A stretch of DNA of 64,000 nucleotides from Patescibacteria group bacterium. Lineage in GTDB: Bacteria > Patescibacteriota > UBA1384 > UBA12157 > JAENIV01. Under the pieces are notes generated by a model, which saw only the letters and a program-made list of their open reading frames with translations, did not search any database and was not told the DNA's origin. The stretch lies in NCBI GenBank assembly GCA_049515915.1, contig JBEKTP010000006.1:4865-68864 (forward strand), given 5' to 3'. This document shows, one piece after another, positions 10,606 through 42,736 of the stretch. Positions within the stretch are counted from its first letter, which is position 1; every line of letters begins with the position of its first letter. The translations under genes and the position numbers were made by a program.

Positions 10606-11766
10606 ATGCGAATTGGTATTTTTAGTGAATGCTACAATCCCGTTCTCAATGGCGTCGTCGTTTCGATTAATACCTTCAAGGCCGAACTCGAAAAACGCGG
10701 TTACGAATTTTATATTTTTACCACGGCCAGTTTAAATAAACAAGAAAATGATCCTCGTATTATTCGATACCCCATCATGCTGCCGTTTAAATCTAAAGGT
10801 GGAAAATACCCGATTGCTTGGCCGCAAAACGCCAAAAAGACCGCTAAAAAGATTGCTCAGCTCAATTTAGATCTAATTCATAGTCAGCATTTATTGGGGC
10901 TGGGTCAAACCGGCCGAAAGACCGCTACAATTCTGGGAATTCCTAAAGTTTTAACCTATCACACCTTACTGGCGGAATACGCCCACTATGTGCCGCTTTT
11001 CCCCGGCCTCGCCAAGCGGTATTTAATCCGCCAAAGCCGTAATATTTGCAACCGCTACGATCAAATTATCACTCCTTCGCCCTCAATGGCTAAAGTTTTA
11101 AGCAAGTACGGCGTCGTCAAACCGATCGAATCTATTGCGACCGGCGTTAACTTAGATGAATATGACCAGCCGTTTAGCCGAGAAGAATTAAAAGCCCGAT
11201 GGTCAGTCCCCACGGATAAAAAATTACTTCTTTATGTCAGCCGAATTGCCAAAGAAAAAAATATTGATTTACTGTTGGAAGCGGTTAAATCATTGACCAA
11301 GAAACGCTCAGATTTTCATCTTTTAATGATCGGGGGTGGACCGGAGCTTAATACCTACAAAAAAATGGTTCAGAATAGCAATCTACGCTCGGTCGTAACT
11401 TTTACTAATATGCAGCCGAAAAACGAAACGGTTAAATATTTTGGCGCGGCGGACATTTTCACCTTTCCTTCCTACACTGAAACTCAAGGCATTGTGATCA
11501 CCGAAGCGATGGCCGCTGGCGTTCCAGCGGTCGCCATTAATAAAATGGGGCCTTCCAATATTATTAAAAACGGCGTGGACGGATATTTAACCGACTTGAA
11601 TGTTGACGAATTTACTGATAGAATTAATCGCTTGCTCAATAACGACGAACTTCGAAAAAAAATGGGGCAAGCGGCGAAAGCTAACGCCCAAGAATATTCA
11701 ACTAAAGCTTGTGCCGATAAAATGGAAGAGTTATATGTCAAAGTCACGCATCATCACCGTTCCTAA
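10606..11766 (+). CDS. Glycosyltransferase family 4
   Basis: GT-B fold with ETQGIVITEAMAAGVPAV (the E-X7-E region), 386 aa. Confidence 0.75.
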   Translation: MRIGIFSECYNPVLNGVVVSINTFKAELEKRGYEFYIFTTASLNKQENDPRIIRYPIMLPFKSKGGKYPIAWPQNAKKTAKKIAQLNLDLIHSQHLLGLGQTGRKTATILGIPKVLTYHTLLAEYAHYVPLFPGLAKRYLIRQSRNICNRYDQIITPSPSMAKVLSKYGVVKPIESIATGVNLDEYDQPFSREELKARWSVPTDKKLLLYVSRIAKEKNIDLLLEAVKSLTKKRSDFHLLMIGGGPELNTYKKMVQNSNLRSVVTFTNMQPKNETVKYFGAADIFTFPSYTETQGIVITEAMAAGVPAVAINKMGPSNIIKNGVDGYLTDLNVDEFTDRINRLLNNDELRKKMGQAAKANAQEYSTKACADKMEELYVKVTHHHRS

Positions 11767-13099
11767 CCCATTTCTTAAGGAAAAAACTGAGAAAATCAGT
11801 TCTCTTGACCGTGAAGTCCAAATTCAAATTAAAGAAATGATTGCCACCTTACGTCGCGAAGGCGGCATTGGCTTGGCCGCCAACCAGCTCGGTTACAAAA
11901 ACCAAGTTATTGTGATTGAATTTATCGACCCCGAAGAAAAAAATCACCTTCCCTTAACGATCTTTATTAACCCGGAAATTGTCAAATATTCCGGCGAAAC
12001 CGAATGTTTCGACGAGGGCTGTCTTTCGGTTCCCAAAATTGAATTTGAGCTCGAGCGGCCAGCCAAACTTAAACTCAAATATGAAGATGAGCACGGCCAC
12101 AAACTTAAAATCGCGCCTAAAGGACTTTTGGCCCGAATTTTGCAACACGAGATTGATCATTTAAATGGAATTTTATTTATCGAACGAGCGCGGGCTCAAC
12201 TTTTCAAAAATTACCCCGAGCTTAAAAACACTCAAATTGCTTTTTTGGGTTCGGGTGAATTCGGCGCGGTCATTTGCGAAGGTCTAATCCATTTGGGCGT
12301 AAATTTAAAAATTTATACCGAAGCGGCAAAAGCGGCCGGTCGAGGAAAACTTTTGCAATCAACGCCAGTCGCCGATCGGGCAAAAAAATTTGGCAAACAA
12401 TATACCGAAATTACCGACATCAAAAAGGCAGTGATAGACGATTGCGACCTTTTAATCTGCGCTGATTTTGGCCAAATATTACCCAAACAAATCTTAGAGA
12501 TTCCTACCATTAAGGCGATTAATATTCACCCCTCCTTGTTGCCGAAATATCAAGGACCTTCCCCGATTCAGACCGCTCTCCTACAAGGAGAAAAGGTTAC
12601 CGGAGTTTCGATTATTGAGATGACTGTAAAAATTGACGAAGGGCCAATTATCACTCAAACCGAGATTGATATTGCCGAAAACGACGATTATACCACTTTA
12701 AGAGATAAACTGGCCACCGTCGGCATTAAACTTCTGGCAAAAAATTTGGGCGAAATTGTTCGCGGCAACCTCGAAGGAAATCCTCAACCCAAAAACTTTA
12801 TGATCAAAACCCGTAAATTTGCTAAAGCGGACGGTGAAATTTCGTGGAATAAAACCCCTCCAGAAATCGAACGTCAAATCAGAGCTTTCCAACCATGGCC
12901 TGGCACATACACCCTCATTGACAACCAGAGACTGTTAATTCACGCCGTCCATATGGAAAAAAAACGGTTGGTTTTAGATTCCGTCCAGCTTGAAGGCAAA
13001 ACACCAACCGATTTCGGCAGTTTCCTTCGCGGCTGGCACGGTCAGAAACCGAAATGGTTAAGTAAAATCAAAATCAATAAAAATGTCTCCACTGGTTGA
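11735..13099 (+). CDS. Peptide deformylase fused to methionyl-tRNA formyltransferase (Def-Fmt single polypeptide)
   Basis: Def motifs GIGLAANQLG, EGCLSVP, QHEIDHLNG, followed in the same frame by Fmt motifs IAFLGSGEFG and NIHPSLLPKYQGPSPIQ. Start chosen at MSKSRIITVPNPF, since the ORF-track start at 11600 overlaps the GT4 gene. Confidence 0.75.
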   Translation: MSKSRIITVPNPFLKEKTEKISSLDREVQIQIKEMIATLRREGGIGLAANQLGYKNQVIVIEFIDPEEKNHLPLTIFINPEIVKYSGETECFDEGCLSVPKIEFELERPAKLKLKYEDEHGHKLKIAPKGLLARILQHEIDHLNGILFIERARAQLFKNYPELKNTQIAFLGSGEFGAVICEGLIHLGVNLKIYTEAAKAAGRGKLLQSTPVADRAKKFGKQYTEITDIKKAVIDDCDLLICADFGQILPKQILEIPTIKAINIHPSLLPKYQGPSPIQTALLQGEKVTGVSIIEMTVKIDEGPIITQTEIDIAENDDYTTLRDKLATVGIKLLAKNLGEIVRGNLEGNPQPKNFMIKTRKFAKADGEISWNKTPPEIERQIRAFQPWPGTYTLIDNQRLLIHAVHMEKKRLVLDSVQLEGKTPTDFGSFLRGWHGQKPKWLSKIKINKNVSTG

Positions 13100-18939: not shown

Positions 18940-19233
18940 TTAAATTTGTCCACAAGGAAAACTGAAAGAAGATCGGATGCTTTTTTCTATGATCCTACGT
19001 TTTTCCTGATCCACTTCCAGTAAGGCATACACAAAAATCTTTCGATGTGCATTTCTCAACCAACAATCTCTCCGTTCATGTTTCGCTATCCTAGTCTTAA
19101 GAGTATCAGTTTCGCCTACGTCTAGATTCTTTCCAAGATCGTCTACGATCAGGTAAACAGCTGCGACATCGTTGAAATCGATCCTATCAAGAGAGTATGG
19201 ACCCTCAAAATTGTAACCTGCAATTGTAATCAT
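18940..19233 (-). CDS. GIY-YIG nuclease-domain protein
   Basis: AAVYLIVDD...VGETDTLKTRIAKHE fits the GIY..YIG..R..H pattern. 97 aa. Confidence 0.5.
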   Translation of the reverse strand: MITIAGYNFEGPYSLDRIDFNDVAAVYLIVDDLGKNLDVGETDTLKTRIAKHERRDCWLRNAHRKIFVYALLEVDQEKRRIIEKSIRSSFSFPCGQI

Positions 19234-19423
19234 TTTTTACTCCTGAACTATTTTTATAAAACCAGCTTTCCCCGATCGACACACCGTTCCCCTCCGCACC
19301 AACAGCCGGAGCTGATTTTTGACTTACGAAAATTATTTTTGCTATAATTAAAAAGCAAGAAGCGTAACTGGGCCGTCCAACCTTTTTACACTTCTTGCTT
19401 TTATTTTTAGACATAAATCCTCC

Positions 19424-19690
19424 TTACAAATTAAATTTTCTCTTTTCCTTTTTAGTAAACCTTAATCGCGCCGCGTCCATCTCTTCTTTGATGGTACTAA
19501 ATATCTTTTCAATATCCTTATCATCATAGTTATATGCTGATTTATTCGCACAGTGCGACAGTATTCTTAGACGATCGATAACAGATTGAGTCCTCGTTGT
19601 AGCTAATCTCAAAAATCTCTCTCTTTTTGCTTGAAGGGAAGTATCAAACTTTTTTTTGTCAGCATTTTCCATATATATCCTCTTCATCAT
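19424..19690 (-). CDS. Hypothetical protein
   Basis: 88-aa ORF with no recognisable motif, between the nuclease candidates and the MTase. Confidence 0.3.
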   Translation of the reverse strand: MMKRIYMENADKKKFDTSLQAKRERFLRLATTRTQSVIDRLRILSHCANKSAYNYDDKDIEKIFSTIKEEMDAARLRFTKKEKRKFNL

Positions 19691-19825: not shown

Positions 19826-21352
19826 TTACCGATTTTCGAATAATCCTTTCTGATTATCAATTTCTTCCGCTTCGGCTTCTTTGTGGTGCGAATGATACCA
19901 ACCGGTTGGCAATTTCGGCTGTTTGCCTAAAAGTAGTTCATTGATAGTTAAAATTTGAATTTTGGGAAATTCAGTTGGCAAATATTCGACAGAAAAATCT
20001 CCTACGGCAAATGCTTCCTCTTTCATTGGTTGGGTTGGCTCATCGAGAGTTATAAAGACGCCGGCGTCGGCGCGCTCTCTCTCAATATCGCCTTTTAGTG
20101 TGGCAATATCACCACGATTGATATGCCCACTTTTAACTTGAACAATTGCCTTGCCGATTTCCTGACTGTCGTGATTCAGTTTCTTATAAAAAGTAATTAT
20201 TCCGTCAACGCCTTTGTCAGCGCCGCCCATATTTTCTTGGGTTTTGTTTTGCGCCGGCATAGCGTTGACTAAACTTAAAGCCCAATATTCAAATTCGAAA
20301 CGATTTTTTCGCGCCAATTCTTTAGCACCCGACAAATCTTTCGGCAAACCGTCAACATTGATTTTGATATTCTTATTGGCAAACTTATTTTGTAAGCGAG
20401 ATTTGATTAGGTTAATTGCAAGTGTAGTGATATCAATTCCTATCCATCTACGATTTAATTTCTCCGCCACCGCGACGGTTGTCCCACAACCGCAAAACGG
20501 ATCCAAAACCCAATCACCTTCATTCGAAGAAGCTTTTATAATCCGTTCTAATAACGCCTCGGGTTTTTGCGTCGGGTAGCCGAGACGTTCTTTTGCCGTC
20601 GAACCAATTGGTGGCATTTGCCAAACATCACCGATTTTTACACCTCTGTTTTCGTCTTCCAAATAAACTTTGTATCTTTTTCCCTTTACCGTGTGCCAGC
20701 GCCATCTTTTCCCTTGATCGTCAACATATCTATAATCTTTCTTGATCCAATCTCCGTAAGGTTCCCACTGACTGTTAAAAGTAAAGGTATCAGATTTCGA
20801 ATAAAAAAGAATGATGTCGTGAAGCCGCTGGAATCTACCAGAAGACGCTGTCCAGCGTCTGTAATGCCATACGATTTCATTCTGAATATTTTCTTTTCCA
20901 AAAATAACATCCATTACAATTTTTAAATAATGGCTGGCAGTTGGGTCGCAATGAAGATAAATAGAACCGGTGGATTTTAAAACGCGTTTTAATTCAATCA
21001 GACGAATGGTCATCATCGTTAAATAGGCCAAAATATCGTTTTTGCCAACCATTTTTTCGAATGCCAGCATCAAATCCGAGATATTTTGATTGATTTTGGT
21101 TTGAGAAGTTTTAACTCCGACTAATTCTGCAAAAACATGTTCGGCTTCGTGCGTCCAATGCCAAGAATCTTCAAACGCTTGCACTTGCGCCGGACTATCA
21201 ACTAAGCCTTCTTTATAAAGAATGTTGTAGTTTCGATTGGAATTAAACGGCGGATCGAGATAAATTAAATCGATTGATTCGCTGGGAATTTTTTCGCGAA
21301 GAATCTCTAAATTATCACCGAAATACAAGGTTCGGTTGGTTAATTCATTCAT
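19826..21352 (-). CDS. Beta-class DNA methyltransferase (N4-cytosine/N6-adenine) with C-terminal Mrr-like PD-(D/E)xK domain
   Basis: Motif IV IYLDPPFNSN comes before motif I VLDPFCGCGTTVAVA, the beta-class order. C-terminal ~140 aa has ADKGVDGIITF...AIVQVKSGHI, resembling the Mrr catalytic signature. Confidence 0.8.
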   Translation of the reverse strand: MNELTNRTLYFGDNLEILREKIPSESIDLIYLDPPFNSNRNYNILYKEGLVDSPAQVQAFEDSWHWTHEAEHVFAELVGVKTSQTKINQNISDLMLAFEKMVGKNDILAYLTMMTIRLIELKRVLKSTGSIYLHCDPTASHYLKIVMDVIFGKENIQNEIVWHYRRWTASSGRFQRLHDIILFYSKSDTFTFNSQWEPYGDWIKKDYRYVDDQGKRWRWHTVKGKRYKVYLEDENRGVKIGDVWQMPPIGSTAKERLGYPTQKPEALLERIIKASSNEGDWVLDPFCGCGTTVAVAEKLNRRWIGIDITTLAINLIKSRLQNKFANKNIKINVDGLPKDLSGAKELARKNRFEFEYWALSLVNAMPAQNKTQENMGGADKGVDGIITFYKKLNHDSQEIGKAIVQVKSGHINRGDIATLKGDIERERADAGVFITLDEPTQPMKEEAFAVGDFSVEYLPTEFPKIQILTINELLLGKQPKLPTGWYHSHHKEAEAEEIDNQKGLFENR

Positions 21353-21592: not shown

Positions 21593-24500
21593 CTAATAAT
21601 TAGCGGTAGAGATATAGTAAATAATCGTCTGATAAGTACTCGCACTTTGAGCCGTCGGCGCCACAACTTTGTAAGTTAATGTATAAATATCATCGGCGTT
21701 GCCGGTCGAGCCATTGACGGCCGCTTCGTGGTCGGCAACAATATCGCCGGGTGCAGTTTGGGAAAAAGCGCAAAATTTGGTTGAGCTTGTCCATTTATCC
21801 ACCCCGCCGATATCGGGGTCGTTTGAAGTATAACCAAAACCTGTCCCGCTCCAAATCGATGGCGAAGCATATGAACTGGCATAGTTAGGAATTGTTAATG
21901 CGCCGTTGACAATCGAAGTTAATAAACCGTTGGCATAAGCTCGAACCGAATATCCGCCGGCGGCGTTAGTGACAGTGTGGACGGCCGTCGTTTTGGTATC
22001 GGTCCAGAAATTGCCGGCGTTGAGATTGGAAAATGTCACGGTATTGGAATCAAGGGAAAATGATAAAGTCGGCACCACCTGCTGAGCAGAGGCGCTAACG
22101 GCATTTCCGATATTGCCGGCATTATCAAAAGCTTTCACGGAAAAATAATAGTTAATACTTGTTTGTAAATTTAAGCCGGTGGCCGTGGCGGAAGTTCCCG
22201 TGCCGTTGTCGGTCCAAGAGGCGATATCAGAACCGCCAGCGGTGGTACCAACCGCATATTGATATTTCAAAAGCCCCGAAACCGTCGCATCAAAACCGCT
22301 CCAGGTCGCACCAAGCTGCGTTAGCGAGCCGGTGTTAGCACTATTAGTAACGCTGCCGCCGGTCGGGGCGGTGGCGTCAACTTTGAGATCAACCGTTGCT
22401 TGAACTCCAAAATAAGCTGGACTAGCTGATGTTGCACCATGGTTATCAATTCCATAGACTCGCCACCAATAACCGGTCGACGAGTCTGACAAAGTCATCG
22501 AAGCAGAACCAACCGCATAGGTTCCGCCACTTTGGCCGACTTGATAAGCAAAAGTTGTGCCTGAAGAGGAAAGTGTACCGTAGGTGTAATCCAAAACCAA
22601 ATGAGTAAAGTTGGAATCTGTATTGTCGATTTGGATTTCATATTTAACAGTGTCGCCGGTATCGGGATCGGTAATATTGAAGCCGAACCAAGGTTGGTTA
22701 ACATTGGTCCAAGCACTCTCGGCAATATTATTGGCTCCGGAAGTTGTTCCCTGGGTTAAACTTGTTGGCGTATTGGGCGGATGGTTGGTCACAAACCAAT
22801 TGGTATTGTTGCCGTCGTCGGTATAATGAGTGGGATTAATGGGAGAAGCGGCTTGATTGTTAGAATTTGCCGGCGTAACGTAATCAACGCTCCAAGCTGT
22901 CGGATTAATATTCCATTGACTCGAGCCTGAACCGCCATTCCGCCCTAAGGTAATGAGTTGTCCTGAAGCACCAGTACAGGTCCAAGTTCCGGAAACGGTT
23001 GTGGTTGAACCGGAATCAAAATTGATTGTTCTTGCTGTCGTCGCCGTAGCTGTAAAATTGTAAAAAGATGTATTGCCTGAAACAATCTGGGTCGAACCGC
23101 CAGCGCCAGTAAAAGTCACCGTGCCGCCGGAATTATTGGTAAAGGTGCCAGAATTTATCCAGTTACCGGCTAAATCAATACTATATTTATTGGTCGCGTT
23201 ATTATTTAAAGTGGCGTTAGTATTACTAAGAGTCAAAGTGCCGGTCATAGCCGCCGAATTAGCGGCCGTTAAATTACCGGTCAAAGAATAAGTTGTTGTC
23301 GAAGTCGGCGTCAAAGTTAAATTATTGTAGGCGGCTGTCGTAATATTGGTTCCTGTGCCCGAGCCGGTATAAACTACCGTTGAGCTGGTCGTCGTCAATG
23401 TGCCTGATTTAGTAAAAGGTGTGCCGGTGCCGGCAATAGTCAAAGTTTTACTAGTAATGTCTAAAGTATTGTTAATATAAAGATTCAGCGTCGTTAATTT
23501 CATATTAGTTTGAGCTGAAATCGCCATGCCGGACGAACCGTTAATTGCCACTGTACCGAGATCTTGAAGACTGGCAGTGTTATCGTAAAAATTATCCGTG
23601 CCGGCAGGACCATCGAAAGTCGTGGTGCCGCCTTTGGTAAAAGTAGTTCCCGAAGCTAACGTAAAAGAGCCGGCGTAAGTTTGATTTTGACTATTGCAGT
23701 TATAGATACCAGTCTGAAGATTAAAAGCACCATTGGTATCAACTTGACCGGTAATGGTTGCCGTATTGCCGCCACCAACATTAATGGTTAAATTATTAAA
23801 ATTAGTGACGCCGATTTGCGGCGCGACGCCGGTAAAAATCACCGTACCGGTGGCGGTAAAAGTGCCAGCAGATTTAACCCATGTCGAAGCGCCGGTGCCA
23901 GTTACCGTAATCGTATTGCCGTTATCGGCCAGAGTTCCACCTGATCCGGTTTGATTGTATTGGCCAATCGAAATCGGCGTCGATGATGTCAGTGTCGTCG
24001 TGCCACTGGTAGAAGAATAATTTAATGCGCCCGTCACAGTAAAAGCAGCATTAGATGTCATAGTTGCCGTACCAGAAACAGTTAAGCTGCTGCCGATGGC
24101 AGTTACGCCAGTCATGGTTTTAGCACTGGTACCGCTTAAAGTCAGATTATAATAAGAAGTTGGATTGACTGTTTGAACTCCGCTAGCATTATAGTTGACC
24201 GTATTACTTGCAGCTGATGCGGTAAAAGTGGCCACGCCAATCGAACTGCCGCCAAAATTTAAAGTGCCGGTCGTGCCGTTGCCATCTGTCCAAGTGCTAC
24301 CCGACCCGCCGGAAGCAAGTGTTGTGCTGATAGTTACCGTGCCGCTATTGGTGACTGATGCGCCCGCACCAATGGTTGTATTTGGCATCGTCGTTGTTGT
24401 TGAACCGCTAATTGTTTTTCCTGAACCGGTAAAAGTATGAATGCCGGTAGAACTGGTCCAAGTAGTGGCGTTATTAGTTAAACTGCCACCAAAGTTAATA

Positions 24501-26410
24501 GGCTGGGCCGCCGATTCGTTCCACACAGTTCCCGAGTTGAGCGTCACATCCCCGGTAAATGTCGCACTCCCAGAAGCACTACTAAAAGTTATATTTAGAC
24601 TAATCGATAAGGTACCACCCACCGAAAAAACATAGGCGCCGTTGCTTAAGCCGCCGCTGGAGATTGTGAGGTTTCCGCTGACCGACAAATTGTTGCCAGT
24701 GGTAAGTGTTCCACCGTTAATAGTTAAAGTACCGGCAGTCATCGATGCCGCAGTCGTCGCCGTACAAGTGCCACTAACCGTGAAAGTGCCGCTAATCGTC
24801 GAAACATTAGTTAAAGTTTTGGCACCGCTAGATTGAATCTTTAGATTGTAATAAGTGATGCTGGGGAAAACTGTTTGGGCTCCGGCATAGCCGTAAACAA
24901 CAGTGTTACCGGAAGCCGAGGCAGTTAAAGTGGTGATGCCCATCGCGCCAGTAAAGTTATCGTTTAGTATTCCGGTACCAGCATTAGTCCAACCGCCGGA
25001 ACCAGTTAGTGAGCTAGTAAAAGTGGCTGTCCCGTTGTTAGTAACGGTCACACCGGATGCGACTGTCGCGACACCACTGGCGCTGATCGGAACTGTTGTC
25101 GAGGCTCCAGAAGTGGAAATACTAAAACCGCTGGTATTATTAAAGTTAACCGTCACAAAAGCTAAAGTCGCTGTGCTGGTACCGGTAATTGATGTTGCCG
25201 CCGGCGACGCGGGAGTATTGAAGTTGATGGTGCTGCCAGTAAACGTGATCGGGGTTGCCGCAGTCGTGTTAATTACCCAGTTTCCGTAAAAATTATGCGT
25301 GTAAGAACCAGCCGTAAAGGTTGCCGCGCCACCAATCGTAAAATTACCGTTAACTGTTAGAGCACCGCCCGCTGATTTTGCCCCTGCCGTGCCATTAATC
25401 TGCAAGTTCCAATAGGCCGGGGTGTTTGAAACGGTTTGAGTCGTGTTGGCCGCATAATTAACCGTCGTTCCGTTAGCGATATTTCTCGTCGCAAAGGCTG
25501 GCCAGGTGGTCGCTCCCCCCGTCCCTCCGAGGGTAAATGTTCCGGAAGTTAAGTTGAGAGTTCCCGTGTCGGTTATTTGATAGCCGCCATCGGCAAAAAT
25601 ACTGCTTGACGTCACATCACCAATGGTTAAAGTTACAATCGTCGCCGTGCTGGTTAAGGTCACCCCGGCCGGATTGTTTGATTTTAAAACATTATAGGTG
25701 GTATAACCTCTTGCTGTTTCGGCCGAGGTGCCCTTAAAATTCATGACGCTTCCGGTTGTTGTTGTCAATACTCCGGCGATCGAACCGGAGCCAAAGTTGC
25801 CCGTAAGATTGACTGTCCCGGCGCCAGAAAAAACCAACTGGGCATTACCGGTCGTGCCACCAAAAGTGATATCACTGGACGCCCCGCCTGCCGCCCCAAC
25901 GTTCAGTGTGCCGGTGCTGATGCTCACCTGGCCGACTCTTGAAGATGTACCACCGTTAATGGTCACGGTCCCGGCAGCTGACGCAGAGCCCGTACTTAAC
26001 GTATACGCACCAATAGCAACCGCCGTTCCGGAGCTGGAGGTTGGTGCGGTTATGGTTATTGTACCGATTGGATTAGTAACGCTCGCGGTCAGTGTGACAG
26101 TTATATTGGCATTAATAACAACGTTATCAAAGTTTGAGCTTGACCAACCGGGATAAGCGGAGGTATTACTTTCACAAGCACTTCCCCAAGTTGCCGGGGC
26201 GTTCCAGTTGCCGCTGACCGAGGCAGTACAAGTATAAGTGGTCGCTTGAGCTTTAAAAAACGAGGTAAAATTAATCAGTGAAAAAACGAGAATACCCAAA
26301 ACAACTAAGGCAATCGTGCCCCAAGTGAGCCGCGTTTTATTTTTCGGCTTACGAAAAGTCTCACGAACTCTTAAATAGATTCCGTCAATTTTTCTTATCG
26401 GATTAGACAT
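21593..26410 (-). CDS. Giant (1605 aa) membrane-anchored Thr/Gly/Ser/Asn-rich surface protein with beta-helix-like repeats and C-terminal FN3/Ig-like domains
   Basis: N-terminal TM anchor LTWGTIALVVLGILVFSLI, then >1000 aa of degenerate TGT/SGT-rich repeats, then Ig/FN3-like segments. Almost no charged residues. Confidence 0.7.
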   Translation of the reverse strand: MSNPIRKIDGIYLRVRETFRKPKNKTRLTWGTIALVVLGILVFSLINFTSFFKAQATTYTCTASVSGNWNAPATWGSACESNTSAYPGWSSSNFDNVVINANITVTLTASVTNPIGTITITAPTSSSGTAVAIGAYTLSTGSASAAGTVTINGGTSSRVGQVSISTGTLNVGAAGGASSDITFGGTTGNAQLVFSGAGTVNLTGNFGSGSIAGVLTTTTGSVMNFKGTSAETARGYTTYNVLKSNNPAGVTLTSTATIVTLTIGDVTSSSIFADGGYQITDTGTLNLTSGTFTLGGTGGATTWPAFATRNIANGTTVNYAANTTQTVSNTPAYWNLQINGTAGAKSAGGALTVNGNFTIGGAATFTAGSYTHNFYGNWVINTTAATPITFTGSTINFNTPASPAATSITGTSTATLAFVTVNFNNTSGFSISTSGASTTVPISASGVATVASGVTVTNNGTATFTSSLTGSGGWTNAGTGILNDNFTGAMGITTLTASASGNTVVYGYAGAQTVFPSITYYNLKIQSSGAKTLTNVSTISGTFTVSGTCTATTAASMTAGTLTINGGTLTTGNNLSVSGNLTISSGGLSNGAYVFSVGGTLSISLNITFSSASGSATFTGDVTLNSGTVWNESAAQPINFGGSLTNNATTWTSSTGIHTFTGSGKTISGSTTTTMPNTTIGAGASVTNSGTVTISTTLASGGSGSTWTDGNGTTGTLNFGGSSIGVATFTASAASNTVNYNASGVQTVNPTSYYNLTLSGTSAKTMTGVTAIGSSLTVSGTATMTSNAAFTVTGALNYSSTSGTTTLTSSTPISIGQYNQTGSGGTLADNGNTITVTGTGASTWVKSAGTFTATGTVIFTGVAPQIGVTNFNNLTINVGGGNTATITGQVDTNGAFNLQTGIYNCNSQNQTYAGSFTLASGTTFTKGGTTTFDGPAGTDNFYDNTASLQDLGTVAINGSSGMAISAQTNMKLTTLNLYINNTLDITSKTLTIAGTGTPFTKSGTLTTTSSTVVYTGSGTGTNITTAAYNNLTLTPTSTTTYSLTGNLTAANSAAMTGTLTLSNTNATLNNNATNKYSIDLAGNWINSGTFTNNSGGTVTFTGAGGSTQIVSGNTSFYNFTATATTARTINFDSGSTTTVSGTWTCTGASGQLITLGRNGGSGSSQWNINPTAWSVDYVTPANSNNQAASPINPTHYTDDGNNTNWFVTNHPPNTPTSLTQGTTSGANNIAESAWTNVNQPWFGFNITDPDTGDTVKYEIQIDNTDSNFTHLVLDYTYGTLSSSGTTFAYQVGQSGGTYAVGSASMTLSDSSTGYWWRVYGIDNHGATSASPAYFGVQATVDLKVDATAPTGGSVTNSANTGSLTQLGATWSGFDATVSGLLKYQYAVGTTAGGSDIASWTDNGTGTSATATGLNLQTSINYYFSVKAFDNAGNIGNAVSASAQQVVPTLSFSLDSNTVTFSNLNAGNFWTDTKTTAVHTVTNAAGGYSVRAYANGLLTSIVNGALTIPNYASSYASPSIWSGTGFGYTSNDPDIGGVDKWTSSTKFCAFSQTAPGDIVADHEAAVNGSTGNADDIYTLTYKVVAPTAQSASTYQTIIYYISTANY

Positions 26411-26483
26411 ATATCTATACCAAAGATAGGCAGAAATGTCTTAAAATATCTAAACTGCCTTTCTTATTTTTTTGTTTTCTATC

Positions 26484-27272
26484 TTAACTTTGCCGATTAT
26501 AATTGGGCGGAAACATTTTTTGTAAAAGCTTAACTTGTTCACCTTCCATCCAGCGCATTCTTCTTAAATTGAGAAAATTCAAAATAATAAACAGCGGACA
26601 AAGTAAAATCAGTAAAGTGGGCCAAGCCAAAACCCAGAAAGAAATTTGGATTTTGGTACCGGTATTAACCAACTTTTGGGCCGCAATTTGCGCACCTGAT
26701 AATCCTTCATCTATTTGCTGTTTGGGAGAGTATAAAGTAATTTCTTTACCCGTAATTGGATTGGTCATCCCGACCGTCACATTGGTGGGAAAAGGCGGCG
26801 GATCAAAAGTGACTTTAATTGGGTTGAGAGTCACTAAGGTGTCGGCGACCACCGTAAAAACCGCCTCGCCAGGGATAAAACTGGTTACCCGAAACTGAAC
26901 TTGGCCGTTTTGATCGGTGGTGTCTTTTTGCATATCGCTGATATCGGCCGCCTGAACTTTACCCGGCCCAAGTTTGCTAACGGCTTCAATAATATCAACT
27001 TGGCCGCGGTTTGAAGTGACCACGACCGAAATGTTAGGCATCGGATTACCGTCCGCATCCTTTAATGTAATAGTCAACAAAATTGAGTGGCTGGCCGGAT
27101 CGGATAAGGTTTCTTGAGTGTTGGTGTCAACTGATGACTGGATTTTGGAAACTTTAGAATCAACTACCGCCGAAACGTTCACCTCGGCGCTGCTTTGCGC
27201 CAAAACCTTCAAAGCAAAAACCATATTAAAAATCAAGAAGATTAAACTGAAAAAAATTATCTTTCTTGTCAT
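26484..27272 (-). CDS. Secreted bacterial Ig-like (Big-1-type) domain protein with C-terminal TM anchor
   Basis: Signal peptide, SILLTITLKDADGNPMPNISVVVTSNRGQVD Ig-like domain, C-terminal hydrophobic helix plus basic tail. Confidence 0.5.
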   Translation of the reverse strand: MTRKIIFFSLIFLIFNMVFALKVLAQSSAEVNVSAVVDSKVSKIQSSVDTNTQETLSDPASHSILLTITLKDADGNPMPNISVVVTSNRGQVDIIEAVSKLGPGKVQAADISDMQKDTTDQNGQVQFRVTSFIPGEAVFTVVADTLVTLNPIKVTFDPPPFPTNVTVGMTNPITGKEITLYSPKQQIDEGLSGAQIAAQKLVNTGTKIQISFWVLAWPTLLILLCPLFIILNFLNLRRMRWMEGEQVKLLQKMFPPNYNRQS

Positions 27273-28243
27273 TGTAAAATTACTCTTTTTTTTCGATCAC
27301 TTCTTTTTTTCTTGGGTCTGATTAGAAAGAAGATAATCGCTGCGATAATTAGAACAATAATTGTAATGAGCCACCAAGGAATAATCCAAAAACTAAAACT
27401 GCCGGACAAAGGCTGATTACCGACACCGTAGGTCGCGGCTAAAGTAACATTAAATTTCCCGAACGAGTACCATTTGCCGGTAAATTTCAGTCCATCAAAC
27501 CGGCGAATGGAATTTGGCAAGACATTACCCTTCGTCGGATTAATATCTTGGGTGGACACCGTTTTACCCCAATTGGTCACCGTCGTTTGACCTTGAGGCG
27601 CAAAATGAACATTACCGGTGTTACCAATTCTTAAAGTAAAATTGACCGGCGGTTTGAGAAATAGATGACCTTCGCTTGAGAATTCAACAATACTGCCTTT
27701 TTCCACGATGTTACCCGAAACCGTGCCTAAAACCAAAGAGCCAACCATGCTGGCTAAGGCCACTTGGGTGGTTTCGCCGGTTGGCGAGGGCGGCTCGGAA
27801 GCAAACAAAACCGCTGCATAATGGCCGCCCGGTTCAGCATTAGCCGGTACAGTAATGGTATATTGAAATTCAATTTCTTGCTCCGGCGTCAAGGCCAGTT
27901 TCGTTTGGGAAAAACTAACCCAGGTCGCTAAGCCGTAAGTGGCATCTTGATTCGGACTTTCAATCGCCGGTACGCCAGTTTCACCTGAAGCCGTAAAATT
28001 TCTCGCGACCGGATAAACTGTGACCAGATCTTTAGTCGGATTATTAAGTTTAATTGTTTCTTTGTAAGTTTTTCCGGGATCAAAATTTAGTTCGGCAATC
28101 GGCGGTGAAATAGTTAATCCCTCGCCAGTTTGGGCCAAGGCCGGCGGCGAGGAAATAAGTAGATATGACGATGAGAAAATAAGGGCGATAAAGATATAAA
28201 ATTTTTTCAAAATTCTCCTTTTTTTAAAAATTCGCGGTCGCAA
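27269..28243 (-). CDS. Secreted cell-surface protein with C-terminal TM anchor and KKKR tail (DUF916/DUF3324-like topology)
   Basis: Signal peptide ...PPALAQT, beta-rich body, C-terminal IIPWWLITIIVLIIAAIIFFLIRPKKKRSDRKKR. Confidence 0.45.
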   Translation of the reverse strand: MRPRIFKKRRILKKFYIFIALIFSSSYLLISSPPALAQTGEGLTISPPIAELNFDPGKTYKETIKLNNPTKDLVTVYPVARNFTASGETGVPAIESPNQDATYGLATWVSFSQTKLALTPEQEIEFQYTITVPANAEPGGHYAAVLFASEPPSPTGETTQVALASMVGSLVLGTVSGNIVEKGSIVEFSSEGHLFLKPPVNFTLRIGNTGNVHFAPQGQTTVTNWGKTVSTQDINPTKGNVLPNSIRRFDGLKFTGKWYSFGKFNVTLAATYGVGNQPLSGSFSFWIIPWWLITIIVLIIAAIIFFLIRPKKKRSDRKKRVILQ

Positions 28244-29273
28244 CCACCGTGACGGTATCGGTATAACTTCCGGCCGGGGCCGAGCCTAAAACTTTAGCTT
28301 TAGAAGTAATGGTGACCGCCTGTGAATTGGCCACCCCATTAAAACTCGCTAAAGTTTGCGGCGTTCGGGTGTATCCACCAACCGTATCGCTTGATTGATT
28401 ATAATGCGCCGCGATGGTGGCCGTGGCCGAAGTTGCCTGAATCCCATAGCCAGCGACCGAATCCAAATTAGCTGAACTGTCATAACTGGCGTCAGCCGAA
28501 CCTAAAAGATAGCTCGAGACGGAATTGTATAATCCGGGATTGGTATTATTGCCTTGATCCTGAACCGAAATCGTATAACCGCTATTGGCATTGGTGGAAG
28601 TGGTGAAGGTAATATTGGGCGAAGAGGTTTTCACCGAAGTCGAAGTGATGGTGCCAAAATCCGTCGAAGTATGATCTAATGAAAAAGTAATCGTCGGATC
28701 AACGCTGGCCGTCACGGAAATTTGATCGCCGGTTAAAAGATAAACTGCGACCGAGCCGCTCTCTGAGGAAGAACCGGCTACGGCAATACTAATAACATAG
28801 GTAGCGTTTGAAGAGCCATTGACAGAATTGGTGTTGTCATAAGTAATAATAATTTTGTCCGAGGCCGCCACCGCCGCCGCGCCCACACCGTCAGTCGGGG
28901 CGGTTAAAGTGAAAATACGATCCTGAGTACCCGAAAAAGCCGCTCCCCAAGCTGAAGCTGAAGGCGTCGCTGCTAAAGTTTCCGTGTTTTCTAAACCAGT
29001 TGAAGCGCCATGAGTGAAAGTCACTGTTGAAATTGTTTTGGAGGTAAAGTTGAAATCAGAGGGGAAAGTGATCGTAATTGTGTCACCGGTAGTTTGGATG
29101 GCATTCTGCGTTGTAAATTTGATTATATGAGAAGAATTTTGAGAAACTTGCTGGCGGCTCATCGTATCGGAAGGGGCCGTCAGACCAGCCGCTTGAGCCC
29201 GTTTAACGATAATTAACGCCAAAAGTGCCAATATCAATACTCCAATAAATAACTTCTTTAAAGTCTTGAACAT
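28224..29273 (-). CDS. Secreted Thr/Ser-rich protein, paralog A of a tandem pair
   Basis: Signal peptide, conserved SDTMSRQQVSQNSSHIIKFTT...TITFPSDFNFTS N-block, C-terminal ...TVTVVATANF. Confidence 0.5.
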   Translation of the reverse strand: MFKTLKKLFIGVLILALLALIIVKRAQAAGLTAPSDTMSRQQVSQNSSHIIKFTTQNAIQTTGDTITITFPSDFNFTSKTISTVTFTHGASTGLENTETLAATPSASAWGAAFSGTQDRIFTLTAPTDGVGAAAVAASDKIIITYDNTNSVNGSSNATYVISIAVAGSSSESGSVAVYLLTGDQISVTASVDPTITFSLDHTSTDFGTITSTSVKTSSPNITFTTSTNANSGYTISVQDQGNNTNPGLYNSVSSYLLGSADASYDSSANLDSVAGYGIQATSATATIAAHYNQSSDTVGGYTRTPQTLASFNGVANSQAVTITSKAKVLGSAPAGSYTDTVTVVATANF

Positions 29274-29312
29274 ATTTTTACTGATTATTTCAAAAAATCA
29301 AATTAAATTTTA

Positions 29313-30425
29313 TTAGAAGTTTCCGGTACAAATGTAAGTTATAGTAGTTGAATAAGCGCCTGCGGGTGTAGTGGAAGCAACATTAGCGATGTATGAAACA
29401 GTAAAAGTATTGGAGGCGGTCGGCGCTGAAGCGCTGGCTAAAGGCGTGGCCGTATTAACAACATAACGGAAGCTATTGGCCGTACCGTAATCGGAAGCGG
29501 GAGTACCGCTACCCGAACCGGTTGGATTAGCTCCAGTTGAAGGTGTTGTATTGGCCTCTAAATTAATGCCAAATTGAGCGGTACCATAAGAAGAAGCCCC
29601 CGCCGAAGCCATGGCCGCAATGGAGTTGCTACCGCTTTTTAGCGTGTCACCGTTATAAGTAATCGTATAACCGCTAGTGCCATTGGTGCCGGCCGCTAAA
29701 GTATTAGCTGTGCTTTGATTATAACCGGTGCCGCCTGATTGGTAAGTCGGGTTGCCGCCGCCAGATTTAGTTAAACTTACCGATGTCGTGGTTAAGGTTA
29801 AAGTCAAATAAGGATCAATCGTCGTGGAAACGGTTACTTGATCATTGGTTAACAAAGTAATGGCATAGGAAGTCGGCCCGGCGGCACAATCTGTACCAGT
29901 CAGTTGAATGGTCGGTAGATAGGTTGTGGCCGTCGAACCATTTACCGCATGAGTGCTAGCATAGGAAATAATTAATTTATCATTGGCGGCAATCGGGTTT
30001 GGGTCAGCGGAAGTTGGAGCTGTCAAAGTTAAAGTCCGATTACTCGTACCAGAAAAAACCGCACCCCAGGTGGCAGACCCAGGGGCACCCGCTACTATAG
30101 TTGAGGTATGTTCCAAACCAGTAGAGGAACCATGAGTAAAGGTAAGGTCAGTGGAGACCGCGCTAGTAAAATTAAAATCGGAAGGAAAGACGATTGCAAT
30201 CGTATCACCTGATATTGCTATTGCGCCACCGGTTGTAAATTTAATCGCGTGACTGGAGTTTTGGGAAATCTGATCACGGCTCATCGTGTCAGAAATCGCC
30301 GTGATAGATGCCGTCGCACGGGTCAGTTGCGGATAACCAAAAGCCACAACTATGGCGAGAACTAAGAAATAGACCAAAAATCTCAAAAATTTTGAGCCTT
30401 CACCTTTACCTCGAGATAAAAACAT
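29313..30425 (-). CDS. Secreted Thr/Ser-rich protein, paralog B of a tandem pair
   Basis: Shares N-block SDTMSRDQISQNSSHAIKFTT...TIAIVFPSDFNFTS and the ...WGA.FSGT...TLTAPT block with paralog A. Ends ...TITYICTGNF. Confidence 0.5.
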   Translation of the reverse strand: MFLSRGKGEGSKFLRFLVYFLVLAIVVAFGYPQLTRATASITAISDTMSRDQISQNSSHAIKFTTGGAIAISGDTIAIVFPSDFNFTSAVSTDLTFTHGSSTGLEHTSTIVAGAPGSATWGAVFSGTSNRTLTLTAPTSADPNPIAANDKLIISYASTHAVNGSTATTYLPTIQLTGTDCAAGPTSYAITLLTNDQVTVSTTIDPYLTLTLTTTSVSLTKSGGGNPTYQSGGTGYNQSTANTLAAGTNGTSGYTITYNGDTLKSGSNSIAAMASAGASSYGTAQFGINLEANTTPSTGANPTGSGSGTPASDYGTANSFRYVVNTATPLASASAPTASNTFTVSYIANVASTTPAGAYSTTITYICTGNF

Positions 30426-38510: not shown

Positions 38511-38998
38511 CCTATAAGTATCAAAAAATGACCCAACGAGTGGATCATTTTTTGGTGGAGCTAGGGAGAATTGCACTCCCGTCCAAAAAACGATTTGACA
38601 ATCTTTGACAAGCATAGATACAGTCCTTGTTATCTTAAGAGTTATACCAGGACGATCTCTAACTCTCGAAGGTCAACTAATGTCGCCATTTCCGACCGGT
38701 CAACCAACGCATCGGAATGACGTGCTTAACCCCGGCTTACGCTAGAGCTAAGGCAGGTGCTAAATTTGGTTTAGCGTTTAGATTTTGCCACGATTTTTTA
38801 CGAGAATGCGTAGCCTACTCGACTTGAAATTGTCAAACGGGTTTTTTGTCGAATCTATATAGCCCCGTTACCTAAACCCTACCATATTTTCAGTCGGAAG
38901 TCAAGCAAATAAACATCAGCTTGACATTAAAGATAGGTTTTGATATTTTCAAATGCCTGACAGATCGTTGCTATTCTGATTCGTAAGGAGATTCGCCG

Positions 38999-41633: not shown

Positions 41634-42629
41634 TTGTTGGATGCGTGGGAGGAGACGATGTTGCGGAGAATGGTAGCACTACTGGTTGCTCTAACTCTGA
41701 TGTTGGCGTTTACTACGGCGCTGTTCGCGGCGCCCCTCGTGCGGCCGGCGATGCCGTGGAGAGAGATCTCCACCTTCGCCTTCAGCGTTCAAGTGACAGA
41801 TGCAACTACTGGCGCTATCGTCAGTAAGAACATCTGGGGCTGGGATGGAAAAAAGTTCGTGATGCTTGTAAACGCCCAAGGCACCGAAGCCCACCAGCCG
41901 GCGTTTTCGCCGGATGGCCGGTTCATGGCGTATGCGGAGCGGTCGAACGGAGATCTCAACATCTGGGTGAAAGATCTCCGATCCGGCCGGTCCCATCGGG
42001 TAACTTTCGGGACGGAAGACCAGGAACCTGCCTGGAGCCCGGACGGGACCAAACTCGTCTTCAAACAAGGACCATGGCCAGCCAAGGTGGTCACGATCAA
42101 CGTGAGCAACCTGAATACGCCTGGCCAACCAGAGCGAGTGTCAGCCGCGCCAGAGTCGGCAGACGAAGGTCACCCCACGTGGGGTGACGGAGTCATCTGC
42201 TGGCAAGTCGATCTAACGGACAATGGCCATACCCAGATCTGGAAGAAGAATTTGGTCAACGGCGAGATCACGGCGGAGGTTCAGGTTGCCGATACTGATG
42301 CCGTTGAACCAGCACTTCTTGGCACGCGGCTAGTCTTCGCCACCCCATTCGGGATATTCGTCAAGACTCTCGGGGAAGCGAATCCCGAAACACCTTTACT
42401 CGATTTCGGGAACCTCCCGGCCTGGGCGCCGGACGGTAGTGGGTTCTATCTATCCGCTACCGAAACTAATCCGGTCGATGGGACATCAAAGACCAGTATC
42501 GTCTTCGCCAGCCTCAATGACGAAGGTGTCACCAGAGTCAGCTGGCTGACAGCCCAGTTCGACTGGGCTTCGGAGCCGACAGCGGCGTTCAGCCGCGACG
42601 TCGGCACCCATCGTTACCTTCCTATGTAA
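41634..42629 (+). CDS. Secreted TolB-like beta-propeller (PD40 repeat) protein (GC-rich gene)
   Basis: Signal/TM segment plus repeated PAFSPDGRFMAY, PAWSPDGTKLVF, PAWAPDGSGFYL PD40 motifs. Confidence 0.6.
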   Translation: MLDAWEETMLRRMVALLVALTLMLAFTTALFAAPLVRPAMPWREISTFAFSVQVTDATTGAIVSKNIWGWDGKKFVMLVNAQGTEAHQPAFSPDGRFMAYAERSNGDLNIWVKDLRSGRSHRVTFGTEDQEPAWSPDGTKLVFKQGPWPAKVVTINVSNLNTPGQPERVSAAPESADEGHPTWGDGVICWQVDLTDNGHTQIWKKNLVNGEITAEVQVADTDAVEPALLGTRLVFATPFGIFVKTLGEANPETPLLDFGNLPAWAPDGSGFYLSATETNPVDGTSKTSIVFASLNDEGVTRVSWLTAQFDWASEPTAAFSRDVGTHRYLPM

Positions 42630-42736
42630 GGGAATATCTGGGATGAAGGAAAAAGGAGGTGCGATCGGGACATTCCACCGGACCTGGGGACGGCGTGCTT
42701 GCGCGCCGTCCCTTTTTTATTCTCAAAATATTTGCC

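Follow-up and report, generated by a model that had tools for sequence, protein, structure and literature searches.

The Pam pilus is a thin attachment filament of ultrasmall CPR bacteria that was first described in 2026 (Troman et al., bioRxiv 10.64898/2026.03.03.709456) and solved by cryo-EM in one cultured species, Ca. Mycosynbacter amalyticus. Its components are the pilins PamA, PamB and PamE, the chaperones PamC and PamD, PamR and PamT (see also NCBIfam models NF058581 and NF058579). The pilins consist of a nine-strand beta-sandwich N-terminal domain (NTD), a single linker strand and a truncated-Ig C-terminal domain (CTD), and the chaperones are PapD/FimC-like and anchored by a transmembrane (TM) segment. 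In the terminator PamR, RbmA-like tandem FnIII domains stand between a donor strand at the N-terminus and a TM helix at the C-terminus; PamT is a small, CTD-only, single-domain tip pilin. Assembly proceeds by donor-strand exchange on a single membrane, without usher or sortase. ATP synthase belongs to the conserved pamA neighbourhood, and a co-localised "tail fibre-like protein" was mentioned in the same preprint without a pilus role (bioRxiv 10.64898/2026.03.03.709456).

The five-gene locus described here (genes A to E) is very probably a Pam-type pilus operon. Its reading as a whole, i.e. a compact Pam pilus operon working by the mechanism proposed below, is considered likely. A previous sequence-only reading had suggested an uncharacterised adhesion or appendage system. 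The module was upheld by its co-conservation and by the Pam pilin A, the filament itself being predicted from homology; the term "uncharacterised" no longer applied, since homologous filaments have been solved in Ca. M. amalyticus and NCBIfam models exist.

Like the Pam system, the locus is restricted to CPR bacteria, all its components carry signals for Sec export, and it combines two paralogous major pilins with a Pam CTD, a two-Ig chaperone with a C-terminal TM helix and a TM-anchored protein whose N-terminus adds a linker-like strand, without usher, sortase or retraction ATPase. Its genes number five, against at least seven in the Pam system; it also differs by a single chaperone instead of the PamC and PamD of Ca. 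M. amalyticus, and by a candidate anchor (D) of Big_1/intimin-type Ig fold instead of the RbmA-like pair of FnIII domains in PamR. No PamE equivalent was identified, and the acceptor-only CTD is borne by a hypervariable protein of 1605 aa (E) instead of a small PamT. An HMM scan of all ORFs of the window (the whole 64-kb stretch of DNA that was analysed) likewise revealed no small CTD-only ORF. The neighbourhood is also devoid of ATP synthase, CorB and MFS genes; a motif search for the Walker signature of ATP synthase alpha/beta was negative in every frame of the window. Finally, among named relatives a Berkelbacteria MAG comes closest, whereas the preprint highlights Saccharimonadia and Microgenomatia.

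Two other systems deserve comparison. The WxL/WxLIP (DUF916-DUF3324) clusters of Firmicutes (Siezen 2006; Hassan and Williamson, PMC9772566, PMC10599100; PDB 9i1y and 9i25) encode WxLIP proteins that were reported to donate a strand completing the WxL beta-sandwich. Completion of a partner beta-sandwich by a donated strand would be a shared trait. C and WxLIP also agree in having a signal peptide, a pair of Ig domains, a TM helix and a basic tail, and both types of cluster show the coexistence of small, mostly-CTD proteins with one large adhesin-type protein bearing the CTD at its extreme C-terminus (PMC10599100, PMC9772566). WxL proteins, however, are thought to be peptidoglycan-binding monomers for which polymerisation is not known, whereas the pilins of the present locus add an N-terminal domain and a linker, and the cluster has no LPXTG protein. 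In chaperone-usher pili (Pap/Fim, CFA/I, archaic Csu), too, a donor strand fills in the incomplete Ig-like domain of the pilin, and the chaperone has two Ig domains (CfaA, CsuC, Caf1M and FimC being strong Foldseek matches to C). FimH and PapG likewise provide a tip where a binding region precedes an acceptor-only pilin domain. In contrast to these pili, the present system has neither outer membrane nor usher (no usher-sized gene occurred in the locus), its chaperone is membrane-tethered and without significant sequence similarity to PapD_N, and its donor strand lies inside the pilin, linking the two domains, instead of extending the N-terminus; the Pam fibre, moreover, is extended and not a coiled rod (bioRxiv 10.64898/2026.03.03.709456). 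Weak matches to SCPU, the archaic chaperone-usher pilin domain, were found in 3 of 16 CTDs.

Organization and conservation of the locus

All five genes lie on the minus strand of the window, as do all features given below, and the ORF coordinates of the sequence-only reading were recovered exactly. Its "tiny or overlapping junctions" were only partly retained. Genes C and D do overlap by 4 nt (27269-27272), in agreement with public gene calls, whereas the overlap between B and C (28243/28224) was an artefact of choosing the longest ORF for C (27269-28243, 324 aa). A Shine-Dalgarno sequence AAGGAG (28214-28219) stands three nucleotides (AAT) before a TTG codon at 28210. Starting there, C is 313 aa long and separated from the stop of B by a 13-nt gap, which agrees with homolog P0001 and with every public gene call. 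In promoter and terminator scans, the numbers obtained for the locus did not differ from those of shuffled sequence, so that spacing and synteny are the grounds for the operon structure. The locus is flanked by ThrRS, SHMT, DHFR and ThyA genes on one side and by a DNA methylase gene on the other, and in relatives its place between the housekeeping genes ThrRS and SHMT is conserved.

Among 85 related loci, each anchored on a C homolog, 77 contained a Pam-CTD protein; in 69 loci, the gene of such a protein lay immediately upstream of that homolog. A gene set that is syntenic in many independent MAGs reflects more than chance, and the earlier proposal of a co-functional, co-conserved module was thereby borne out. 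The order A-B-C-D-E was kept in loci L004, L007 and L008, as well as in L001 up to the contig end (where only the N-terminus of E is present), and in L003 and L011 the order was likewise kept, with one pilin instead of two. B orthologs at the same position were 75% identical in L001 (Berkelbacteria) and 48% in L003.

Pilins, chaperone-like protein and anchor candidate

Gene A (29313-30425, 370 aa) matched NCBIfam model NF058581, "CPR_Pam_pilin_C", with 141.7 bits (1.8e-41, cutoff 55) and, judged by this curated model, is a bona fide Pam pilin. Its family reached 933 cluster representatives (50% identity clusters) at E-values up to 1e-3. Gene B (28224-29273, 349 aa) aligned to the same model over its full length but below threshold (19-21.4 bits, cutoff 55). 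Both proteins had been described as secreted paralogs devoid of charge; paralogy was evident (41% identity, E-value 1e-56), but D, E, K and R account for 21 of 332 residues in mature A and 29 of 321 in mature B. Predicted signal peptides are cleaved at about TRATA|S in A and at KRAQA|AG in B. The linker motif is DQVTVSTTID in A (residues 195-204, nt 29814-29843), where it follows the N-terminal domain, and DQISVTASVD in B (residues 183-192, nt 28698-28727). Both CTDs are C-terminal and end in ICTGNF and VATANF, respectively; the pilin C-termini of the locus were NF or NY, without TM segment or charged tail. The lengths of A and B and the conserved linker between their NTD and CTD regions would fit a two-domain pilin plan.

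No meaningful match came out of PDB sequence searches with A, B, E or the CTD profile; the PamA/PamB structures are either missing from the searched PDB set or too divergent to match. A also matched the NCBIfam PamT model (1.1e-25), in an alignment that spans its DQVTVSTTID segment as well. A PamT-like protein of locus L006 begins with a degenerate segment of this type, which makes the exact position of the donor strand in A and B uncertain. The many genes of about 200 aa in L006 were initially taken for PamT copies and turned out to be cytoplasmic V4R-like paralogs. Likewise, L088 was discarded as a strain variant with shorter pilins, its DNA being identical and its gene calls truncated.

Linkers were scored with a 10-mer PSSM trained on 120 independent pilins. 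Class medians were 16.4 bits for pilin-size proteins, 12.4 for the D family, 6.5 for giant CTD proteins, 3.5 for small CTD-only proteins and -1.2 for other proteins. Both A and B scored 23.6 bits and the mature N-terminus of D 14.3, while no linker motif was detected by the PSSM next to the CTD of E. Among all ORFs of the window, the strict motif occurred in B and D only.

Of the four proteins seen earlier as accessory to the giant, the two with TM helices could be assigned distinct putative roles, chaperone for C and anchor for D. The C-terminal TM segment and basic tail noted on both were recovered in the AF2 models (helices at residues 290-308 in C and 212-253 in D). Gene C (27269-28210; residue numbers refer to the 324-aa ORF) encodes a signal peptide, two Ig-like beta-sandwich domains (AF2 pLDDT 87.1, pTM 0.72), the TM helix (nt 27320-27376) and, after it, the basic tail RPKKKRSDRKKR. 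A low-confidence loop and strand, TQVALASMVGSLVLG (residues 150-175, nt 27719-27796), is the candidate donor strand. Foldseek placed WxLIP (9i1y) first among PDB matches (6.5e-12, TM-score 0.41-0.50), followed by 9i25 (WxLIP bound to a long WxL protein) and then by CfaA, CsuC, Caf1M and FimC; these matches ranged from 6.5e-12 to 1e-6, and several of the matched proteins were solved in complex with subunits. At the sequence level, PF06030 (WxLIP_PGBD) was matched by 47 of 58 members of the C family (up to 6.9e-7), C itself remaining under the gathering score (E-value 0.0058) and without reported DUF3324 match. No match of C was found in NCBIfam or with Pfam PapD_N. C is thus a distant DUF916/WxLIP homolog, both by sequence and by fold, and the DUF916-like label it had been given was confirmed. 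According to its model, C has the two Ig domains and the C-terminal TM helix of the membrane-anchored, PapD/FimC-like protein that a Pam operon contains, and this architecture, which sets it beside PamC and PamD, makes a chaperone function fairly likely.

The resemblance of the locus to WxL/DUF916 loci, also pointed out before, therefore held by sequence, fold and cluster logic with respect to DUF916/WxLIP. So did the reported lack of WxL motifs: no Pfam WxL match was obtained in 16 CTDs at E-values up to 10, nor in A, B or E, and a CTD-profile search of the PDB, including the WxL chain of 9i25, gave no match.

In the product of gene D (26484-27272, 262 aa), a predicted signal peptide (cleavage VLA|QS) precedes the unstructured N-terminal extension, AEVNVSAVVD (residues 29-38, nt 27159-27188). 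An Ig domain of Big_1/intimin type (about residues 47-157), a small beta domain (164-210) and a TM helix (212-235, nt 26568-26639) come next, and the cytoplasmic tail is helical. Pfam Big_1 was matched at 5.7e-8, and Foldseek matches comprised intimin and invasin Ig domains, RbmA not being among them. In the AF2 model (pLDDT 83), residues 26-46 were coil with pLDDT of 58-66. The extension is nearly invariant in the family, which was present in only 12 of the 85 loci, and echoes the pilin linker consensus VxVSAxVD. Since its conserved mature N-terminus copies the pilin linker motif, D may well be the base anchor and terminator of the fibre, an analogy that we judge slightly more probable than the contrary; with regard to PamR, D would be a functional analog at best.

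The giant subunit, proposed assembly and alternative readings

Gene E (21593-26410, 1605 aa) is rich in T, G, S, A and N, and with 19.8% T and 12.5% G it is indeed the T/G-rich giant reported earlier. It starts with an extended signal peptide (residues 1-55, nt 26246-26410) that has a conserved n-region KIDGIY...KPKNK. A hypervariable T/G/S/N-rich region follows (about residues 101-1100, nt 23111-26110), and the conserved C-terminal module (residues 1101-1605, nt 21596-23110) contains Ig/Fn3-like segments and the Pam pilin CTD (about residues 1441-1605, nt 21596-22090), ending in ISTANY. Residues 101-1100 were only 19-41% identical to the L004 ortholog, in a locus where A to D are 92-97% identical. 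The N-terminal 1200 residues had no matches in Pfam, NCBIfam or PHROGs, E had none in the PDB, and self-BLAST revealed no significant internal repeats, the six recurring YxNL-type module motifs alone being seen.

The CTD was missed with full-length E, owing to HMMER bias filters, and was matched using isolated CTDs, HMMER --max and hhalign. The last 150 aa aligned to the full NF058581 model (positions 3-148 of 148, E-value 2.8e-4), below its cutoff at about 21 bits; orthologs P0151 (1.3e-7) and P0167 (3e-10) scored better than E. Comparison of the pilin-CTD profile with that of the E family by hhalign gave 98.4% probability (E-value 1e-14, 155 columns). E had been regarded as a separate, N-terminally anchored protein. 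Its C-terminal pilin domain, common to A and B, argues instead for a pilus subunit, and a cleaved signal peptide appears more likely than an anchor because a signal-peptidase-type site, KAQA|TT, follows the hydrophobic segment.

We propose that Sec exports all five products, whose signal peptides were seen in sequence, and that C is held in the membrane by its C-terminal helix. Its two Ig-like domains would cap the incomplete Ig-like CTD of newly exported subunits, the capping strand probably being the loop and strand at residues 150-175, as suggested by the fold and by WxLIP and PapD precedents. E displays a CTD without linker motif and should therefore act as strand acceptor only. It may nucleate the fibre, end up at the distal tip and show about 1000 hypervariable residues as a host-binding adhesin. 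A and B hold both a linker (donor) and a CTD (acceptor) and would therefore polymerise as the shaft; their homology comes from the present analysis and the assembly mode is borrowed from the PamA/PamB cryo-EM structures. At the base, the linker-like N-terminal strand of D would plug the last CTD, end growth and tether the fibre to the membrane, in analogy to PamR.

Other positions of E may be considered. E might be a stalk anchored in the membrane by its N-terminus, with its CTD resting on the chaperone, or else a surface adhesin in its own right that shares the domain; either would suit its long (about 30 residues) conserved n-region before the hydrophobic segment, its last position in this operon (small PamT-like genes come first) and the fact that the preprint gave the co-localised "tail fibre-like protein" no pilus role (bioRxiv 10.64898/2026.03.03.709456). 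Yet the AQA|T site comes after that segment, the CTD, like that of pilins, is conserved as far as its terminal aromatic residue, the linker motif is missing, and in many loci of other clades giants, which reach about 2600 aa, hold the first-gene position used elsewhere by small PamT-like genes. A small CTD-only protein was found in 27 of the 85 loci and a giant CTD protein in 17, but never both (0/85, hypergeometric P = 6e-4). This mutual exclusion of giants and small PamT-like CTD proteins makes E the probable tip adhesin, a role towards which we lean with restraint, while a Pam pilus with E elsewhere than at the tip appears rather unlikely.

Polymerisation itself may be questioned, since C could dock A, B and E by strand complementation in a non-filamentous display of WxL type, with E as an envelope-held adhesin. 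WxLIP as top PDB match of C (including the WxLIP-WxL complex 9i25), PF06030 in most of the C family and the small/large C-terminal-domain logic of WxL clusters, for which no filament was reported, all point this way. On the other hand, A is a strong member of a family with cryo-EM-solved filaments, no CTD matched Pfam WxL, and the linker copied at the N-terminus of D suits chain assembly and termination better than docking; such a display is thus improbable. A Gram-positive pilus of sortase type, or a tail-fibre module of phage origin, is scarcely credible in place of a donor-strand pilus: the monoderm envelope, Ig-like domains, large fibre-like protein and adjoining restriction-modification-type gene would be compatible with it, but neither LPXTG nor the sortase motif TLxTC occurred in any frame of the 64-kb window, E lacked PHROG matches, relatives keep the locus in synteny between ThrRS and SHMT, and no phage genes flank the present locus.

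Lineage distribution and wider relations

CPR bacteria, which may make up a considerable part of bacterial diversity, live in attachment to host cells, yet little is known of how they recognise these hosts. Read as a Pam pilus operon, the locus suggests a minimal five-gene version of the system in another lineage; provided that the roles assigned to its genes are correct, this version might lend itself to reconstitution. A further suggestion concerns the carrier of specificity, which would be the giant, putative tip protein: over its first ~1000 residues, genomes that are nearly identical elsewhere diverge sharply.

Through C, the Pam chaperone is linked to the DUF916/WxLIP proteins of Firmicutes; no such link was found in the preprint text (bioRxiv 10.64898/2026.03.03.709456) when this was searched for WxL and DUF916. 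The link connects two monoderm surface systems, both still poorly understood, in evolution and in mechanism, and is open to testing. Much more tentatively, Pam and WxL/WxLIP could be branches of one ancient donor-strand system of single-membrane bacteria with membrane-tethered chaperones, in which giant hypervariable CTD proteins would serve as swappable tip adhesins and set the host range of CPR episymbionts. Such a reading would also predict that WxL proteins are, or once were, able to polymerise.

Homologs of C numbered 338, and a scan of species-representative genomes with the C alignment as query recovered 336 relatives, nearly all from CPR bacteria; with A as sole query, the genome scan produced 171 pattern matches and zero relatives. 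The lineages concerned were Berkelbacteria, Woykebacteria, Saccharimonadia, Parcubacteria and others, and a database protein identical to D carries the label "Patescibacteria group bacterium". A few relative MAGs were labelled outside CPR and are probably mis-assigned.

Gene layout and Pam-type pilins

The five minus-strand genes at 21593-30425 form a real, co-conserved operon, for which the best explanation is a compact version of the CPR Pam pilus described recently. The ORF listing agreed with the sequence-only reading on five co-oriented genes, coding for the pilins A (29313-30425, 370 aa) and B (28224-29273, 349 aa), the chaperone-like C (27269-28243, 324 aa as longest ORF), the anchor-like D (26484-27272, 262 aa) and the giant protein E (21593-26410, 1605 aa). 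The 27272/27269 junction proved to be a 4-nt overlap of C and D; the overlap previously claimed between B and C was a product of choosing the longest ORF for C. On the minus strand upstream of C (...AATTTTTAA AAAAAGGAGAAT TTG AAA AAA TTT...), a strong Shine-Dalgarno site precedes the TTG at 28210, a start yielding 313 aa with the N-terminus MKKFYIF, which matches a 93%-identical homolog (P0001) and every public gene call. Since C starts at this TTG, the B-to-C gap is 13 nt. In each of the five proteins, an AxA-type site comes after the N-terminal hydrophobic segment.

One flank of the locus is composed of housekeeping genes (ThrRS, SHMT, DHFR, ThyA and dCMP deaminase) and the other of a DNA methylase-Mrr fusion. 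The latter (19826-21352, minus strand) joins an N6/N4 DNA methylase to an Mrr-type restriction endonuclease domain; it lies immediately downstream of the pilus operon and is accompanied by small ORFs (18940-19690). It has the appearance of a small defence islet inserted here, because the closest related locus (L004) carries a radical SAM gene at this position instead.

A and B displayed 41% identity (E 1e-56) and are paralogs, as had been proposed. Their description as devoid of charged residues was too strong: such residues are scarce yet present, making up 6% of mature A and 9% of mature B. A falls into NCBIfam NF058581 ("CPR_Pam_pilin_C, Pam pilus system pilin subunit"; 141.7 bits, cutoff 55) and likewise matched the NCBIfam PamT model. 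An exhaustive phmmer search with A as query, counted at E<=1e-3 as 50%-identity cluster representatives, gave a family of 933 representatives, most of them 340-380 aa long.

The NCBIfam Pam models originate from a 2026 preprint (10.64898/2026.03.03.709456) which gives cryo-EM structures of thin filaments from the CPR parasite Ca. Mycosynbacter amalyticus. These filaments are composed of PamA and PamB. In each, a single linker strand joins an N-terminal beta-sandwich to a truncated Ig-like C-terminal domain (CTD), which the adjacent subunit completes with its own linker. The same operon codes for PamC/D, which are PapD/FimC-like chaperones with a C-terminal TM helix, for the CTD-only tip pilin PamT, and for PamR, a TM-anchored RbmA-like protein predicted to plug the final pilin with an additional N-terminal strand (10.64898/2026.03.03.709456). 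The system can no longer be called uncharacterised, its kind being already known from that work. At the sequence level, A, B and the CTD of E are homologous to the Pam pilins.

Giant, chaperone-like and anchor-like proteins

The first ~1200 residues of E matched no family in Pfam, NCBIfam or PHROGs. Its last ~150 residues aligned with positions 3-148 of 148 of NF058581 (E 2.8e-4), a match that improved in the orthologs P0151 (1.3e-7) and P0167 (3e-10). Profile-profile comparison of pilin and E-family CTDs gave 98.4% probability (E 1e-14, 155 columns) and extended to a conserved C-terminal aromatic residue (A, ...TGNF; B, ...TANF; E, ...TANY). In the joint CTD alignment, the E family displayed a 5-residue deletion exactly at the VSA of the pilins' linker motif, and a linker PSSM found no match near the CTD of E. 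No small CTD-only ORF was detected by HMM scan of all window ORFs. Between L004 and the window, A-D were 92-97% identical and residues 1101-1605 of E 72-89% identical, against only 19-41%, with 402 gap columns, for residues 101-1100.

E had been described as N-terminally anchored; its hydrophobic segment is followed by KAQA|TT, an AxA-type site which, as read from sequence only, favours a cleaved signal peptide over an anchor. Within the N-terminus of E (26246-26410, minus strand), upstream of this segment, lies a conserved cytoplasmic n-region of ~30 residues, K(K/R)IDGIYxxVKxxLxKPKxK, common to the giant Pam-CTD proteins of the clade (also in L003, L004, L007 and L008). It may be an extended signal peptide dedicated to the secretion of very large substrates.

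Homologs of C numbered 338 in the protein database, and 336 relatives occurred in species-representative genomes, nearly all labelled as CPR lineages. The AF2 model, built from a 58-sequence alignment (pLDDT 87.1), predicts a signal helix, two beta-sandwich domains and a TM helix (290-308), with a low-confidence loop (residues 150-165) followed by a strand (TQVALASMVGSLVLG). The top Foldseek match in the PDB was Enterococcus faecium WxLIP (9i1y, E 6.5e-12), together with 9i25, WxLIP "bound to long WxL". The chaperone-usher chaperones CfaA, CsuC, Caf1M, FimC, DraB and EcpB followed, many of them solved in complex with their pilins, and RbmA was also among the matches. The "DUF916-like" label given to C is therefore correct, since Pfam PF06030 (WxLIP_PGBD, formerly DUF916) matched 47 of the 58 family members (best E 6.9e-7). 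In AlphaFold models of WxLIP, a disordered hairpin turns into a strand completing the WxL beta-sandwich (PMC10599100); PapD-type chaperones act by the same principle, donor-strand complementation. From this precedent, its modelled fold and architecture, and synteny, we infer that C is a membrane-tethered chaperone.

D had only 30 homologs, one of which adjoins a C homolog in Berkelbacteria RBG_13_40_8. In its AF2 model (pLDDT 83), an unstructured segment (26-46) is followed by a Big_1-type Ig domain and a small beta domain, and a long helix makes up the TM and cytoplasmic parts; Foldseek matches included intimin and invasin Ig domains, RbmA being absent from them. The unstructured N-terminal segment is nearly invariant across the family (xVNVSAxVDSKVSK) and mirrors DQVtVSATVdPtLTF, the consensus that 122 pilins share between their N- and C-terminal regions. 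The 10-mer linker PSSM, trained on 120 independent pilins, scored 23.6 bits in both A and B and 14.3 bits in D (residues 29-38). Medians were 16.4 bits for pilin-size CTD proteins, 12.4 for the D family, 6.5 for giant CTD proteins, 3.5 for small CTD-only proteins and -1.2 for all other proteins. A strict regular expression for the motif, applied to all window ORFs, retained B and D only. Such a pattern would be expected of a membrane-anchored terminator that only donates a strand. With its linker-like motif and TM anchor, D would at most be analogous in function to PamR, homology to which is not demonstrable. The donor segment proper could lie a few residues upstream of the motif (SVAVYLL in B); the PamT model aligns over the DQVTVSTTID segment of A too, and a degenerate segment of this type opens one PamT-like protein.

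Related loci and proposed assembly

Co-occurrence was followed in 85 loci anchored on C homologs (six from exact-protein look-ups, 79 from a genome scan); C, D and CTD HMMs were run on all of their ORFs. Many loci were cut by contig ends, and counts are per locus, not per genome. A protein ending in a Pam CTD occurred in 77/85 loci, directly upstream of C on the same strand in 69. Pilin-size CTD proteins (295-460 aa) were found in 72 loci, small CTD-only, PamT-like proteins (<295 aa) in 27, giant ones (741-2588 aa) in 17 and D-family proteins in 12, seven of these with a giant. Small and giant CTD proteins never occurred together (0/85, ~5.4 expected by chance; hypergeometric P = 6e-4), and in several clades the giant takes the first-gene slot held elsewhere by PamT-like genes. 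Across loci, the giant behaves like a substitute for the small tip pilin. The A-B-C-D-E order was repeated in L004, L007 and L008, in L001 up to the contig end (only the N-terminus of E being present), and in L003 and L011 with a single pilin. Co-occurrence across CPR genomes was the check suggested with the sequence-only reading; by these counts and the recurring order, the module is co-conserved.

Three tandem C-type chaperone genes follow the pilin genes in L010, L023, L033, L034, L047 and L060, so that lineages differ in their number of chaperones, from one to three. In the metagenomic contig L006, about ten tandem cytoplasmic paralogs of ~200 aa (1740-8000 and 11781-13006) flank pam-like genes; all begin with MAKVKLTKKE... 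and finish with ...DPYDEFKITW, and one matches Pfam V4R.

The window locus is a member of the Pam kind, with departures from the operon as described. It displays one chaperone instead of two, a Big_1-type anchor instead of an RbmA-like one and a giant CTD fusion instead of PamT, and it lacks the ATP-synthase neighbourhood (motif search, 64-kb window). Among named relatives, a Berkelbacteria MAG is the closest. The locus also closely parallels WxL clusters, which contain small WxL proteins, large ones with N-terminal adhesin domains (some beta-helical) and WxLIP, the WxL domain being always C-terminal. The proposed WxL/DUF916-like layout stood on the chaperone side, by sequence and structure, and found no evidence on the CTD side: none of 16 CTDs matched Pfam WxL, and three gave weak matches to SCPU, the archaic chaperone-usher pilin domain. 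A sortase pilus was excluded by the absence of LPXTG and sortase TLxTC motifs in all frames of the 64-kb window, and a phage module by the absence of phage signatures in a PHROG search of E. The text of the Pam preprint (10.64898/2026.03.03.709456) mentions neither WxL, DUF916 nor adhesin, and only in passing a co-localised "tail fibre-like protein". New to this kind, and testable, are the giant-tip architecture, the anchor that mimics the linker and the connection to WxLIP.

As a Pam pilus, the system would work as follows. Sec would export A-E, and C would cap the CTDs of the exported subunits. E, a strand acceptor only, would nucleate the fibre and end up at the tip, showing its hypervariable ~1000-residue region; it is a probable giant tip adhesin. 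A and B, both donors and acceptors, would build the shaft, and D, a donor only with a TM helix, would end and tether the fibre. We infer this polarity, and likewise which strand is the donor, the action of the chaperone and host binding.

Other features of the window

A 731-aa radical SAM protein (4382-6577, plus strand) is split by an intein with a LAGLIDADG homing-endonuclease domain (Pfam Intein_splicing 104-520, LAGLIDADG_3 398-452, Radical_SAM 530-670). Seven tRNA genes (2820, 40342, 45801, 45986, 59396, 61319 and 62099) and no rRNA occurred in the window, together with a tmRNA (38553-38866, minus strand; tag peptide AKPNLAPALALA). A local G+C peak at 42001-44000 (0.54 vs ~0.41 elsewhere) spans a PD40-repeat protein (41634-42629) and a 297-aa ORF without Pfam family (42802-43695). 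A single 499-aa ORF (11600-13099, plus strand) combines peptide deformylase (50-199) and methionyl-tRNA formyltransferase (213-454), an apparent def-fmt gene fusion.
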